A stretch of DNA of 64,000 bases from Escherichia phage KIT06. The DNA is taken from sequence record OQ349392.1; one strand, given 5' to 3'. Position numbers and translations under genes: made by a program. Position 1 is the first letter of the stretch, and each line of letters opens with the position of its first letter. Below, in pieces: positions 1,525-49,979 of the stretch. The notes under the pieces were generated by a model that saw nothing but the letters and a program-made list of their open reading frames with translations, did not search any database and was not told the origin of the DNA.

Positions 1525-2055
<531 letters not shown>

Positions 2056-8104: not shown

Positions 8105-8317
8105 ATGCTACAATTAACTGAAAAGCAACTTCGCAATCTTACTGTTCTTCAATTAGATGAAATTCGTAGGGAAGTTGGAAATATCATTTCAGCTTTGCGT
8201 CGAGAAGTATCACTCAACCAATCTCCGGCAGACTATACTAGATTGCGAAATTTTGAAAAATACCTTGATAAAGTTAAGGCCGTGCATCGGCACAAAGTAA
8301 ATACAGGACAAAAATGA
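8105..8317 (+). CDS. hypothetical protein (rI.1 position)
   Basis: 70-aa ORF between tk and rI; TATAAATA late-promoter-like motif at 8072-8079 upstream. Confidence 0.5.
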
Positions 8318-8329
8318 TAGGAGGCCTTT

Positions 8330-8623
8330 ATGGCCTTAAAAGCAACGGCACTATTTGCCATGCTAGGATTAGCGTTTGCTTTATCTCCACCGATTGAAGC
8401 GAATGTCGATCCTCATTTTGATAAATTTATGGAATCTGGCATTAGACATGTTTATATGCTTTTTGAAAATAAAAGCGTAGAATCATCTGAACAGTTCTAT
8501 AGTTTTATGCGAACGACCTATAAAAATGACCCGTGCTCTTCCGATTTTGAATGTATAGAGCGAGGCGCGGAGATGGCACAATCATACGCTAGAATTATGA
8601 ACATTAAATTGGAGACTGAATGA
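8330..8623 (+). CDS. rI: lysis inhibition regulator RI
   Basis: 97 aa; signal anchor MALKATALFAMLGLAFALSP and remainder near-identical to T4 RI as recalled. Confidence 0.9.
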   Translation: MALKATALFAMLGLAFALSPPIEANVDPHFDKFMESGIRHVYMLFENKSVESSEQFYSFMRTTYKNDPCSSDFECIERGAEMAQSYARIMNIKLETE

Positions 8624-9006
8624 AATTCAGCGACTTTTCACAAAGTGGAAAACCTTCAAAGGCAGATGAATACTTAGGTTTATTAATGGCTGCACAAGCT
8701 TATTTTCATTCTGCACATTTTGAAACTAAAAGTTATGCTAGACACAAAGCATACGATTTTATTTTCTCTGAGTTGCCAGATTTGATTGATAAATTTGGTG
8801 AGCAATATTTGGGGTATTCTGGTAGAAAATACACACCTTCTATTCCAGATGCCAGTAAACTTCCTACCGACACAATTAAAATGATTGATCGCATATTAGA
8901 CCAATCTAACAGCATTTACAAAGAAATGCCTCCAGCCATTCAAAGCACGATAGATGATATTACTGGAATGTTTTATCAAAGTAAATATCTTCTTTCCCTC
9001 GAATAA
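8620..9006 (+). CDS. hypothetical protein (rI.-1 position)
   Basis: 128-aa ORF, ATGA overlap with rI stop, followed by terminator. Confidence 0.55.
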
Positions 9007-25924: not shown

Positions 25925-26236
25925 ATGATTAGTTTTGAGCGGTATGTGGTAGAGAGTTGGAAGGGTTTTGATATGTTCGGTAATGACTATTATTTCTATG
26001 AATGTAGTCTAAATCCTAGTTTTTGGGCTGGACGAGAACGAGAACTTGAAGAAATTAATAACCGCGCTGAATTGTTAGGTGAATTACCTACGGTTTATTT
26101 TACCTTTGATGCATCTGGATTTGTTATCCAGGTTTATTTTCCTGAAGAAAATTCTGGCGATGATTCTGTTAACCCGCCATACTGGGCTTATCAAGGAATT
26201 ATTTCTCGTGGAACAAAACTCGAACTTAAAGAATAA
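25925..26236 (+). CDS. hypothetical protein
   Basis: 103-aa ORF, TAATTATG start context. Confidence 0.5.
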   Translation: MISFERYVVESWKGFDMFGNDYYFYECSLNPSFWAGRERELEEINNRAELLGELPTVYFTFDASGFVIQVYFPEENSGDDSVNPPYWAYQGIISRGTKLELKE

Positions 26237-47001: not shown

Positions 47002-47030
47002 TTTACAAGCTGACAGGACTATGGTATAGT
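47001..47030 (+). promoter_or_regulatory. T4 early promoter
   Basis: GTTTAC 47001-47006, TGGTATAGT with -10 at 47025-47030. Confidence 0.65.
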
Positions 47031-47488: not shown

Positions 47489-47518
47489 GTTTACAAGCTG
47501 ATAGAGTTGTGTTATAGT
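47489..47518 (+). promoter_or_regulatory. T4 early promoter embedded in 10-bp inverted repeat
   Basis: GTTTAC 47489-47494, TGTTATAGT -10 at 47513-47518; inverted repeat AGCTGATAGA (47496-47505) / TCTATCAGCT (47522-47531). Confidence 0.6.
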
Positions 47519-47862: not shown

Positions 47863-48156
47863 ATGAAAAAATTTGTTTTTGCTGCAATTTTTGCTTTGGC
47901 TTCTTGTGCTGCTCAGCCTGCTATGGCGGGTTATGATAAAGATTTGTGCGAATGGTCTATGACTGCAGATCAGACTGAGGTTGAAACTCAGATTGAAGCA
48001 GATATTATGAATATCGTTGAGCGTGATCGCCCTGAAATGAAAGCTGAAGTACAAAAACAGCTTAAGTCTGGTGGTGTAATGCAGTATAATTACGTTCTGT
48101 ATTGTGATAAAAACTTCAATAATAAAAATATCATCGCTGAAGTAGTAGGTGAATAA
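47863..48156 (+). CDS. sp: spackle periplasmic protein (superinfection exclusion)
   Basis: 97 aa; signal peptide MKKFVFAAIFALASCAAQPAMA; near-identical to T4 Sp as recalled. Confidence 0.85.
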   Translation: MKKFVFAAIFALASCAAQPAMAGYDKDLCEWSMTADQTEVETQIEADIMNIVERDRPEMKAEVQKQLKSGGVMQYNYVLYCDKNFNNKNIIAEVVGE

Positions 48157-48782
48157 TGCTCTATCAAATGCACAAGTGTAAAGACACGTACAATTATAAA
48201 GGTGCCCAGTGTTATATCATCAATCGTGAAAACGTGGGTCCAGGTCATTCGCATCAATCACGGTTTGTATTCGTTAAAAATAATGAAATTATAGCAGTTG
48301 CTAATTACATGCTTGTGACTAATGATGTTAATCCGGTGCCTTTTACGTATTATAATCTAATGGATTTGGCGTACGATTATAATTGGTTTAATCATGATAA
48401 TTTGGCTCATATTGAAGGCGTAGGATTTGACATCTCTTATTCTAGTTACTCGTTGTGTCCTATGAGCCGAGCTCATAAAGAGCCTGAATATTTTTCATTT
48501 CGTCGGCGTGTAGACTTTGAACGCAGCACAGAGTATATCGGTGGAATTTTTGTTAAAGATAATCGAATTACTCGCATTATTTATCCTTTGGGCTGTGGTC
48601 AAAAAGATATTGATGTTGATTTAGACTTTACTGAAAACATCATTAATCATATTGCTTCTGTGTATTTTGATATTGATCATAAAATTGTAATATGTGGATA
48701 TGAATTACCATCAGAAAAACAGTCTAAAGTGAATGTTTCTATTGATGACCAAATTTTTAATGCTTTTATGAATAGAGGTTAA
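48156..48782 (+). CDS. hypothetical protein
   Basis: 208-aa ORF, ATGA overlap with sp. Confidence 0.5.
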   Translation: MLYQMHKCKDTYNYKGAQCYIINRENVGPGHSHQSRFVFVKNNEIIAVANYMLVTNDVNPVPFTYYNLMDLAYDYNWFNHDNLAHIEGVGFDISYSSYSLCPMSRAHKEPEYFSFRRRVDFERSTEYIGGIFVKDNRITRIIYPLGCGQKDIDVDLDFTENIINHIASVYFDIDHKIVICGYELPSEKQSKVNVSIDDQIFNAFMNRG

Positions 48783-48783
48783 T

Positions 48784-48948
48784 ATGAAAACGTTTAAAGA
48801 ATTTATCAAAGAAGATATGGTCGCTGGAGATTCAGGTGGTAATCCTGAAAATATCTCTACTGGAACAACGTCAGGCGCTGTAGTAAATAAAGGTCCTGAA
48901 CAGATTCCTAAAAAGAAAAAAGAGGAATCTAAAGAAAAAGAAGAGTAA
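48784..48948 (+). CDS. small CTS-bearing protein (candidate capsid internal peptide)
   Basis: 54 aa; N-terminus MKTFKEFIKE resembles capsid targeting sequence of ipII/ipIII in this window; Lys/Glu-rich tail; tightly packed between neighbours. Confidence 0.45.
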   Translation: MKTFKEFIKEDMVAGDSGGNPENISTGTTSGAVVNKGPEQIPKKKKEESKEKEE

Positions 48949-48950
48949 AA

Positions 48951-49979
48951 ATGTCATCAATACCTTGGATTGATAATGAGTTTGCATACCGTGCGCTAGC
49001 TCATTTACCTAAATTCACACAAGTAAATAATAGTTCAACTTTTAAATTACGGTTTAGATGCCCTGTTTGTGGAGATTCAAAAACCGACCAAAATAAAGCC
49101 CGTGGATGGTATTATGGTGATAATAATGAAGGAAATATTCATTGTTATAACTGTAACTATCATGCACCAATCGGAATATATTTAAAGGAGTTTGAACCTG
49201 ATTTATATCGTGAGTATATCTTTGAAATAAGAAAAGAAAAAGGTAAAAGTCGTCCAGTAGAAAAACCTAAAGAACTTCCTAAACAACCTGAGAAGAAAAT
49301 AATTAAATCTCTTCCGTCATGTATTAGATTAGATAAACTGGCGGAAGACCATCCAATTATAAAATACGTAAAAGCTCGCTGTATTCCAAAGGATAAATGG
49401 AAATATCTTTGGTTTACAACCGAATGGCCTAAATTAGTTAATAGTATAGCACCAGGAACATACAAAAAGGAAATACCTGAGCCCCGTCTTGTTATTCCAA
49501 TTTATAATGCTAATGGAAAAGCTGAGTCTTTTCAAGGACGTGCATTAAAGAAAGATGCTCCCCAAAAATATATCACAATCAAAGCTTATCCTGAGGCAAC
49601 AAAAATCTATGGAGTCGAACGAGTCAAAGATGGTGATGTATATGTTCTAGAAGGACCTATAGATTCACTTTTTATTGAAAACGGTATAGCTATTACGGGT
49701 GGTCAATTAGACCTAGAAATTGTTCCATTTAAAGATAGACGTGTATGGGTTTTAGATAATGAACCTCGTCACCCTGACACTATTAAACGAATGACTAAAT
49801 TAGTTGATGCAGGAGAAAGGGTTATGTTTTGGGACAAATCTCCCTGGAAATCAAAAGATGTTAATGATATGATTAGAAAGGAAGGTGCAACCCCTGAACA
49901 AATTATGGAATATATGAAAAATAATATTGCACAGGGGTTGATGGCTAAAATGCGGCTATCTAAATATGCTAAGATTTAA
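48951..49979 (+). CDS. 61: DNA primase gp61
   Basis: 342 aa as in T4; zinc-binding CPVCGDS...CYNC and TOPRIM-like region. Confidence 0.95.
   Translation: MSSIPWIDNEFAYRALAHLPKFTQVNNSSTFKLRFRCPVCGDSKTDQNKARGWYYGDNNEGNIHCYNCNYHAPIGIYLKEFEPDLYREYIFEIRKEKGKSRPVEKPKELPKQPEKKIIKSLPSCIRLDKLAEDHPIIKYVKARCIPKDKWKYLWFTTEWPKLVNSIAPGTYKKEIPEPRLVIPIYNANGKAESFQGRALKKDAPQKYITIKAYPEATKIYGVERVKDGDVYVLEGPIDSLFIENGIAITGGQLDLEIVPFKDRRVWVLDNEPRHPDTIKRMTKLVDAGERVMFWDKSPWKSKDVNDMIRKEGATPEQIMEYMKNNIAQGLMAKMRLSKYAKI

Follow-up and report, generated by a model that had tools for sequence, protein, structure and literature searches.

Gene 61.1 of T4-like phages encodes a small paralogue of the maturation junction and N-fist of gp23

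The 54-codon ORF that lies just ahead of the DNA primase gene of Escherichia phage KIT06 is gene 61.1 of T4; it is a real gene, and purifying selection acts on it. The product (MKTFKEFIKEDMVAGDSGGNPENISTGTTSGAVVNKGPEQIPKKKKEESKEKEE) is a small paralogue of gp23 residues ~55–98; it spans the gp21 cleavage site and the N-fist and then runs into a Lys/Arg-rich tail. The gene itself was already known, as an uncharacterised one. The analysis was carried out on a 64,000-nt stretch of this genome (OQ349392.1), which is referred to as the window, and the features used below are collected in Table 1.

Table 1. Coordinates of gene 61.1, its parts, its neighbours and the comparison features in the window.
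Feature	Position	Strand	Basis and remarks
Gene 61.1 CDS	48784..48948	+	54 codons + TAA, ATG start; ORF list
Shine-Dalgarno GAGG	48775..48778	+	5 nt ahead of 61.1 ATG; read from sequence
61.1 leader, residues 1–10, MKTFKEFIKE	48784..48813	+	CTS-like; aligns with gp23 56–65 (AQAFGSFLTE); I-K-E, gp21-type end
61.1 core, residues 11–38, DMVAGDSGGNPENISTGTTSGAVVNKGP	48814..48897	+	paralogue of gp23 N-fist region, gp23 66–93
61.1 linker, residues 39–42, EQIP	48898..48909	+	alignment; E39 and P42 invariant among short forms
61.1 tail, residues 43–54, KKKKEESKEKEE	48910..48945	+	K/R-rich composition kept family-wide, sequence not
61.2 (adfA, anti-DarT factor A, in some records)	48156..48782	+	upstream neighbour
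Gene 61, DNA primase	48951..49979	+	downstream neighbour
ipII-like internal protein gene, 105 aa	2127..2444	+	leader MKTFKEFIAE; comparison partner
ipIII-like internal protein gene, 192 aa	2471..3049	+	leader MKTYQEFIAE; comparison partner
Two exact late-promoter consensuses, TATAAATA	1527–1534, 1540–1547	+	13 nt apart; ahead of the ipII-like and ipIII-like genes by ~600 nt
Candidate early sigma-70-type promoter, TTTACA-17-TGnTATAGT	47002..47030	+	consensus scan; upstream of the dmd-61 block
Second candidate early sigma-70-type promoter	47490–47518	+	consensus scan

The window region is Tequatrovirus DNA and is 97–98% identical to its nearest deposited relatives. The 61.1 protein that it encodes is identical to T4 NP_049649 at 53 of 54 positions, with T26 in the window and I26 in T4. 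A preliminary description of this DNA had treated the ORF as unannotated; it is annotated as gene 61.1 in T4, T2, JS98 and hundreds of records, and merely falls under the cut-off of the ORF track. The gene order is that of T4 (41 - dmd - 61.4 - sp - 61.2 - 61.1 - 61), and 61.1 is on the same strand as gene 61. The same description had placed the ORF 2 nt from both a 208-aa ORF and gene 61. This spacing is correct for the gene 61 ATG, and the gap behind the stop codon of 61.2 is 1 nt. A 38-aa ORF on the opposite strand (48871–48987) was set aside as a by-product of the purine-rich tail codons of 61.1.

61.1 is widespread. DNA at least 90% identical to it is present in 500 phage records, and tblastn with the protein reaches 1,438 phage records, whose hosts include Escherichia, Klebsiella, Acinetobacter, Aeromonas, Vibrio and others. 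NP_049649 is labelled 'gp61.1 hypothetical protein', and the T2 and JS98 homologues are likewise 'hypothetical'. The gene corresponds to T4-GC 1491 'Hypothetical-Protein' (T4 19130–18966), which is found in 10 of 10 genomes of T4-like phages other than cyanophages with a length of 165 to 501 nt (Sullivan et al., 2010, PMC3037559 Table S3). It matches a function-less PHROG of its own, phrog_1823, over residues 1–54 (E 6.8e-34), and scans of the 54-aa protein against Pfam and NCBIfam gave no match. In the literature search, 'gp61.1' occurred only in two annotation tables and no paper found assigns it a role; a combined search for 61.1, 61.2 and dmd returned nothing, and a review of T4-related genomes does not mention 61.1.

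Residues 2–38 of 61.1 align with T4 gp23 residues 57–93 without gaps over 37 residues, at 46% identity (BLASTP, E 4e-9). When a profile of the short forms of the family was compared with all PDB sequences, gp23 chains alone were significant (E 1e-5), and the next match had an E value above 1. Profile-profile alignment by hhalign gave the same result for the short forms (97.8%, E 1.2e-12), where 61.1 1–43 falls on gp23 55–98, and for the long forms (98.2%, E 6.6e-14), which cover gp23 53–101. The motif G-D-x-G...N-I-A-x-G-x-T-S-G-A-V...G-P is common to gp23 and 61.1. With the junction marked by a slash, FIKE/DMVAGD of 61.1 lies on FLTE/AEIGGD of gp23 in the same register. In gp23, FLTE/AE is the site at which gp21 cuts to remove the 65-residue propeptide, between Glu65 and Ala66 (PMC9546572, PMC5694885), and residues 66–91 form the N-fist (PMC7136217), with which 61.1 residues 11–36 align. 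The (L/I)-x-E motif described for gp21 (PMC5694885) is present in 61.1 as I8-K9-E10, aligned to L63-T64-E65 of gp23. The P1' residue of the 61.1 junction is usually Asp or Glu.

Before the head expands, the N-fist segment of gp23 is disordered inside it and probably lies against the scaffolding core; expansion brings the segment to the outer surface, where it touches four subunits and helps to form the Soc site (PMC9958956, PMC9546572). A helical density under gp24* in the T4 head maps is noted as unexplained (PMC9546572). The 61.1 product is probably disordered as well, so that both segments are disordered, by prediction or observation, when undocked. In contrast to gp23, which has an HK97-fold body, an I domain and a Gol region, the 54-residue 61.1 protein has none of these and does not match Pfam Gp23; 61.1 contains the N-terminal maturation junction and N-fist motif of the Gp23 family, and the HK97-fold body is absent. 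The N-arm of gp23 is replaced by the K/R-rich tail in 61.1, and gene 23 is a late gene of the head cluster, whereas 61.1 is an early gene beside the primase. The 61.1 cores resemble one another at 17–24 of 28 positions and the gp23 N-fists at 13–18 of 28, and the reverse holds too, which indicates one old duplication followed by two separate old lineages. A comparison of matched and mismatched pairs of 61.1 core and own gp23 N-fist, which looked for co-variation and gene conversion, was not significant (22/120 permutations, n=5 phages).

This similarity has also reached the databases. Homologues of 61.1 are labelled 'major capsid protein' or 'major capsid domain-containing protein' in many GenBank phage records, among them PV390659 (31776–31940), OP870144 (17421–17585) and MW388002 (27342–27818), which we attribute to automated propagation from the genuine ~40-residue similarity to gp23. 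The 'major capsid protein' labels are spreading misnomers, and they are misleading. One GenBank record labels the 61.1 site 'exonuclease'.

The preliminary description had noticed that the N-terminus MKTFKEFIKE matches the capsid targeting sequence (CTS) of the ipII and ipIII proteins, and this observation was borne out: among the six-frame ORFs of the window, the motif occurs in just three, namely 61.1 and the ipII-like and ipIII-like genes. The leaders of 61.1 and the ipII-like gene agree at 9 of 10 residues and 27 of 30 nt, with the first 23 nt identical, and the DNA identity stops within codon 8. All three genes use ACG for the Thr at position 3. The common 23 nt and the ACG codon suggest that the leader is a module acquired by common descent or recombination, and not by convergence. 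In the CTS, residues 4 and 7 serve targeting and residues 8 and 10 serve processing (Mullaney & Black, as summarised in PMC9026906), and the leader of 61.1 carries all four determinants mapped in that summary (F4, F7, I8 and E10). The equivalents in gp23 are F59, F62, L63 and E65. Each deviation of 61.1 from MKTYQEFIAE is known in ip-type leaders: F4/K5 in the ipII-like gene of the window, and K9 in the JS98 ORF at the ipI locus. As a separate observation, F4/K5 of the ipII-like leader in the window differs from the MKTYQEFIAE that is described in the literature for T4 IPII and IPIII.

A strict leader pattern is found in 4 of 186 window ORFs, three of which are 61.1, ipII and ipIII. A looser CTS-like pattern, K-x-F-x-[ED]-F-hydrophobic-x-E, is found in 6 of 186 ORFs including the same three, which leaves 3 of 183 unrelated ORFs. 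A 103-aa ORF at the T4 nrdH position (25925–26236, + strand) begins with MISFERYVVE, in agreement with the strict CTS pattern (F4, Y7, V8, E10). This match is probably due to chance at the pattern level, and it shows a background of ~1 in 180 ORFs for the strict pattern.

In T-even-type phages, the leader of 61.1 reads as indistinguishable from a CTS. CTS-like leaders recur in ~18 of 28 short forms, very divergent ones included (MIKFKDFVES, MKNFNIFYEE and MRLMKTFNEFLKEA). Some short forms have minimal leaders (MVEE/VVAGD and MMDINES/VVAGD), and others have insertions of 2–5 residues before the junction. In JS98, MKTY.EF[IL].E is kept in five ip-type ORFs, whereas the leader of 61.1 has drifted to MKSFKEVMNE (V7, M8); by this comparison, the 61.1 leader is less well conserved than true CTSs across related genera. 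The ORF at the ipI locus of JS98 (NC_010105), which encodes 97 aa and begins with MKTYQEFIKE, lies on the minus strand between trna.4 and 57B (record positions 72260–72553; 17554–17261), in an unannotated gap at the T4 ipI position, and is likely an internal-protein gene that the annotation lacks. gp114 (MKTYNEFIAE) and gp135 (MKTYNEFLNE) also have CTS-type leaders and are annotated as hypothetical only.

61.1 belongs to a narrow, phage-specific family, as only 51 family representatives were recovered when 1.84 billion cluster representatives were searched exhaustively with a profile. A word-indexed homologue search with the short protein found 14 close relatives only; the diversity described here comes from tblastn and the exhaustive profile search. 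The members are either short (50–70 aa) or long (112–165 aa, typically ~155 aa), with a few of ~240–250 aa. Long forms (phrog_2086; about 155–165 aa) occur in KVP40, Aeh1, RB43, Lw1, Cronus and Acinetobacter phages; the gene beside the primase encodes ~155–163 aa in Erwinia phage Cronus, Acinetobacter phage Mokit, Lw1, Vibrio VH7D and KVP40-type phages. The long forms share the junction, the core, the basic tail and the primase-adjacent position with the 61.1 of the window, and the 61.1-like segment is C-terminal. In place of the CTS-like leader they have a conserved helical N-domain of ~100 aa, which has no relative in Pfam, the window or the T4 head-gene cluster and, in profile comparison, no similarity to gp67, gp68, gp22 or Inh. 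AlphaFold2 predicted a long form with low confidence (mean pLDDT 57), with the core and tail disordered.

Both forms share the junction: a hydrophobic-x-Glu sequence followed by D, E, A or S is found in ~24 of 28 short and 26 of 28 long representatives. In the long forms, another conserved [IL]xE lies 13 residues upstream of the junction. The core consensus of the family is [MV][VI][AS]GD[SA]GG....I[AS].G.[TN][ST]G.[VI]...GP, and a Lys/Arg-rich tail is present in all forms. The long form of Cronus reads ...L-IKE-DMVAGD at the junction, which, together with the DNA identity that ends in codon 8, would be expected if a CTS module had replaced the N-domain at the junction. Two side observations were made. 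Residues ~144–167 of T4 gp22 (8118–8924; ...ESPRLFEELN...) resemble the long-form junction consensus ...ALPLFE/DMVAGD; the similarity is insignificant by hhalign (E 0.079, probability 0.7%) and possibly reflects a common gp21-site context. The deep-search representatives P0109 and P0128 read MKIFKEFIKEDMVVGDLGGNFENIFIGIILGVVVNKGFEQIF, in which each codon with C at its second position seems to have T there instead (T>I, A>V, S>L/F, P>F). Reads in which C had been converted to T (bisulfite-like or deaminated) seem to have been assembled into these sequences, which do not look like real variants.

To locate the constraint along the gene, the 61.1 of the window was compared with that of JS98 segment by segment. 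The core has pN 0.08 and pS 0.75, the leader pN 0.15 and pS 0.25, and the tail pN 0.43 and pS 1.0, which indicates that the constrained element is the junction and core and not the tail. Residues 11–42 are the most conserved part of 61.1. The earlier characterisation of everything behind the leader as low-complexity and Lys/Glu-rich is true of residues 43–54 (K+E 0.92) and not of residues 11–42 (K+E 0.09). In T6-type variants of 62 aa (P0003 and P0004), a frameshift in a poly-A run of the tail leads to ...KKKKRNLKKKKSKNVINTLD; these proteins are 8 residues longer, and their frame must continue beyond the normal stop in the direction of the gene 61 start, or into it. The T6-type tail is found on 17 contigs and is still basic, which suggests that the exact sequence of the tail is dispensable.

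The tail codons double as a purine-rich stretch just ahead of the gene 61 start, and they could be taken to mean that 61.1 is not a functional protein and that a chance or decaying frame is kept for ribosome binding of gene 61 or for possible middle-promoter signals. A MotA-box-like TGCTTT lies at 48761 (+), and TAATAT, 13 nt behind it (48780–48785), runs into the start codon of 61.1; were this a real middle promoter, its transcripts would start inside 61.1 and serve gene 61 only. The T6-type frameshift and a protein that is unseen in proteomics agree with such a frame. It is opposed by a core pN/pS of ~0.1 at saturated synonymous change, by a protein motif that is kept across genera whose DNA is no longer alignable, by presence in all non-cyanophage T4-likes and by the good Shine-Dalgarno sequence. 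The substitution pattern effectively refutes this explanation, to which we leave only a minute probability.

The location of the gene raises a different alternative, in which 61.1 is a small basic helper of gp61 and gp41 and its likeness to gp23 is a relic of its origin. In all of the T4-like genera that were covered (Tequatrovirus, Dhakavirus, Jiaodavirus, Krischvirus, Roskildevirus, Pseudotevenvirus, Hadassahvirus, Biquartavirus and Schizotequatrovirus), the family lies directly or almost directly upstream of the primase. This adjacency in nine named genera, the 2-nt spacing to gene 61, early expression and the K/R-rich tail all agree with a replication accessory. However, the constraint falls on the gp23-like core and junction and not on the tail, the core-region gene order of T4 is kept for many unrelated genes, and the protein has no similarity to any nucleic-acid-binding family of Pfam or NCBIfam. 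T4 replication has moreover been reconstituted in vitro without gp61.1. We regard a role in replication as very unlikely.

The expression of 61.1 was assessed from promoter scans and published time courses. The exact T4 late-promoter consensus TATAAATA is absent from the + strand between 8072 and 51162, and one-mismatch variants occur at chance level only, which is uninformative in AT-rich DNA. The whole window holds five exact copies against a shuffled expectation of ~10. The ip genes are preceded by late promoters whereas 61.1 is not, and the dmd-61 block has candidate early promoters instead. In T4, 61.1 has an early-class transcript, and time-resolved proteomics did not detect its protein (Class_P = NA; PMC9697503 Table S2). 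In the same data set, T4 ipII and ipIII have early-class transcripts and late proteins (PMC9697503 Table S2), and the head-assembly gene 40 is a member of the same early cluster as 61.1. The transcript class of 61.1 alone thus does not exclude a role in the head. A mass spectrometry study of T4 virions and its supplements do not mention 61.1 (PMC5694885).

Taken together, the explanation that we prefer, tentatively and at somewhat less than even odds, is that gp61.1 is a gp21 substrate that is co-assembled into the prohead and yields a 44-residue peptide. gp61.1 would enter the prohead interior like its gp23 counterpart, which faces the scaffolding core until it is cleaved, and it may be targeted by the CTS-like leader, the gp23-like core or both. 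gp21 would then cut after Glu10 (I-K-E/D) and release 44 residues that comprise the N-fist-like segment and the basic tail. This cleavage predicts a semi-tryptic peptide that starts at Asp11, DMVAGDSGGNPENISIGTTSGAVVNK, i.e. DMVAGDSGGNPENIS(T/I)GTTSGAVVNK. The 44-residue peptide might stay with the DNA or the capsid lattice, or exit with other core fragments. In the long forms of ~155 aa, the N-domain would take the leader's part and be removed at the same junction. The gp23 paralogy, the register of the junction, the CTS determinants and the recurrence of CTS-like leaders all argue for a prohead substrate, as do the family-wide basic tail (internal proteins are basic too), the nearby gene 40 and the early transcripts of ipII and ipIII. 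The early-only promoters, the undetected protein, a leader that is less constrained than true CTSs and the minimal leaders of some short forms weaken it, and so do the lack of any role in the literature found, an N-domain that is unlike prohead core proteins and a P1' residue that is mostly Asp or Glu.

61.1 resembles IPI, IPII and IPIII (and Alt) in its leader, its Glu10 junction and its small basic product, but it has no similarity to IPI, IPII and IPIII past the leader (profile search: phrog_5341, E 0.35 only). Between phages the internal proteins are hypervariable, and 61.1 by contrast is a core gene; IPI, IPII, IPIII and Alt are known prohead-core proteins whose CTS is removed by gp21, and 61.1 is not a known head component. 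The comparative and expression data weaken the simple reading of 61.1 as another internal protein. The preliminary description had proposed that a CTS directs a peptide of ~44 aa into the capsid. The leader determinants and the junction uphold this proposal at the level of sequence; the expression data and the drift of the leader in JS98 speak against it. Its further suggestion of an anti-restriction cargo like IPI was abandoned, as the peptide is instead a paralogue of the gp23 segment with the maturation junction and N-fist.

The early transcript of 61.1 and its early-type promoters agree with a protein that acts in the cytoplasm and never enters the head. In such a scenario, which we hold to be unlikely, though less so than the other alternatives, gp61.1 would be an early mimic of the nascent gp23 N-terminus that binds a partner of the junction and N-fist. 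That partner might, with the same reservation, be a host sensor or protease, a chaperone, the gp21 zymogen, Inh or unassembled gp23, and the mimic might, again doubtfully, act as a decoy, a competitor or a timing regulator. The core is the most constrained part of 61.1, and its conservation parallels that of the gp23 N-fist across very large distances, which is what a partner common to the two would lead one to expect; the core alone is predicted to be disordered. The neighbours dmd, adfA/61.2 and sp counter host defence or exclusion, and gp23 is a documented trigger of CmdTAC (PMC11618068) and, through Gol, a 29-residue gp23 element, of the Lit protease (PMC3014915). However, a titration-type sensor such as CmdC would be triggered and not blocked by a mimic. 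The recurrent CTS-like leaders and the kept Glu-ending junction are left unexplained by a mimic, which has no known partner, and its core does not co-vary with the phage's own gp23 in the matched-pair comparison. The homology also stops at Gly92-Pro93 of gp23, or at ~101 at most, which we take to be upstream of the Gol element. Mimicry of Gol in the Lit system in particular was considered and rejected, since the gp23 alignment stops at ~93–98 and nothing in gp23 beyond that point matches the tail of 61.1.

A further reading offers two possible roles, and we consider it improbable: 61.1 may be a free 'N-fist' module, which is loaded by its CTS and docks on the lattice at vertices or the portal, where gp23 N-fists are missing or disordered, or which serves as an early mimic of the capsid N-terminus that pre-empts capsid-sensing immunity or controls gp21/gp23 maturation. 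The probability that is left after the four readings (prohead substrate, cytoplasmic mimic, replication accessory and non-functional frame) belongs to something else.

61.1 is among the few function-less genes that are common to all non-cyanobacterial T4-like phages, and it belongs to the best-studied phage. A free-standing copy of the gp23 junction and N-fist, behind a near-perfect CTS in T-even phages, turns an anonymous ORF into a specific hypothesis, and the pre-cleavage segment of gp23 is a possible origin of the CTS recognition principle. If gp61.1 is packaged, it would be a new component of the T4 head and would add to CTS-based protein-delivery engineering; an unpackaged gp61.1 would instead be an early-made capsid mimic, which is of interest for capsid-sensing immunity.
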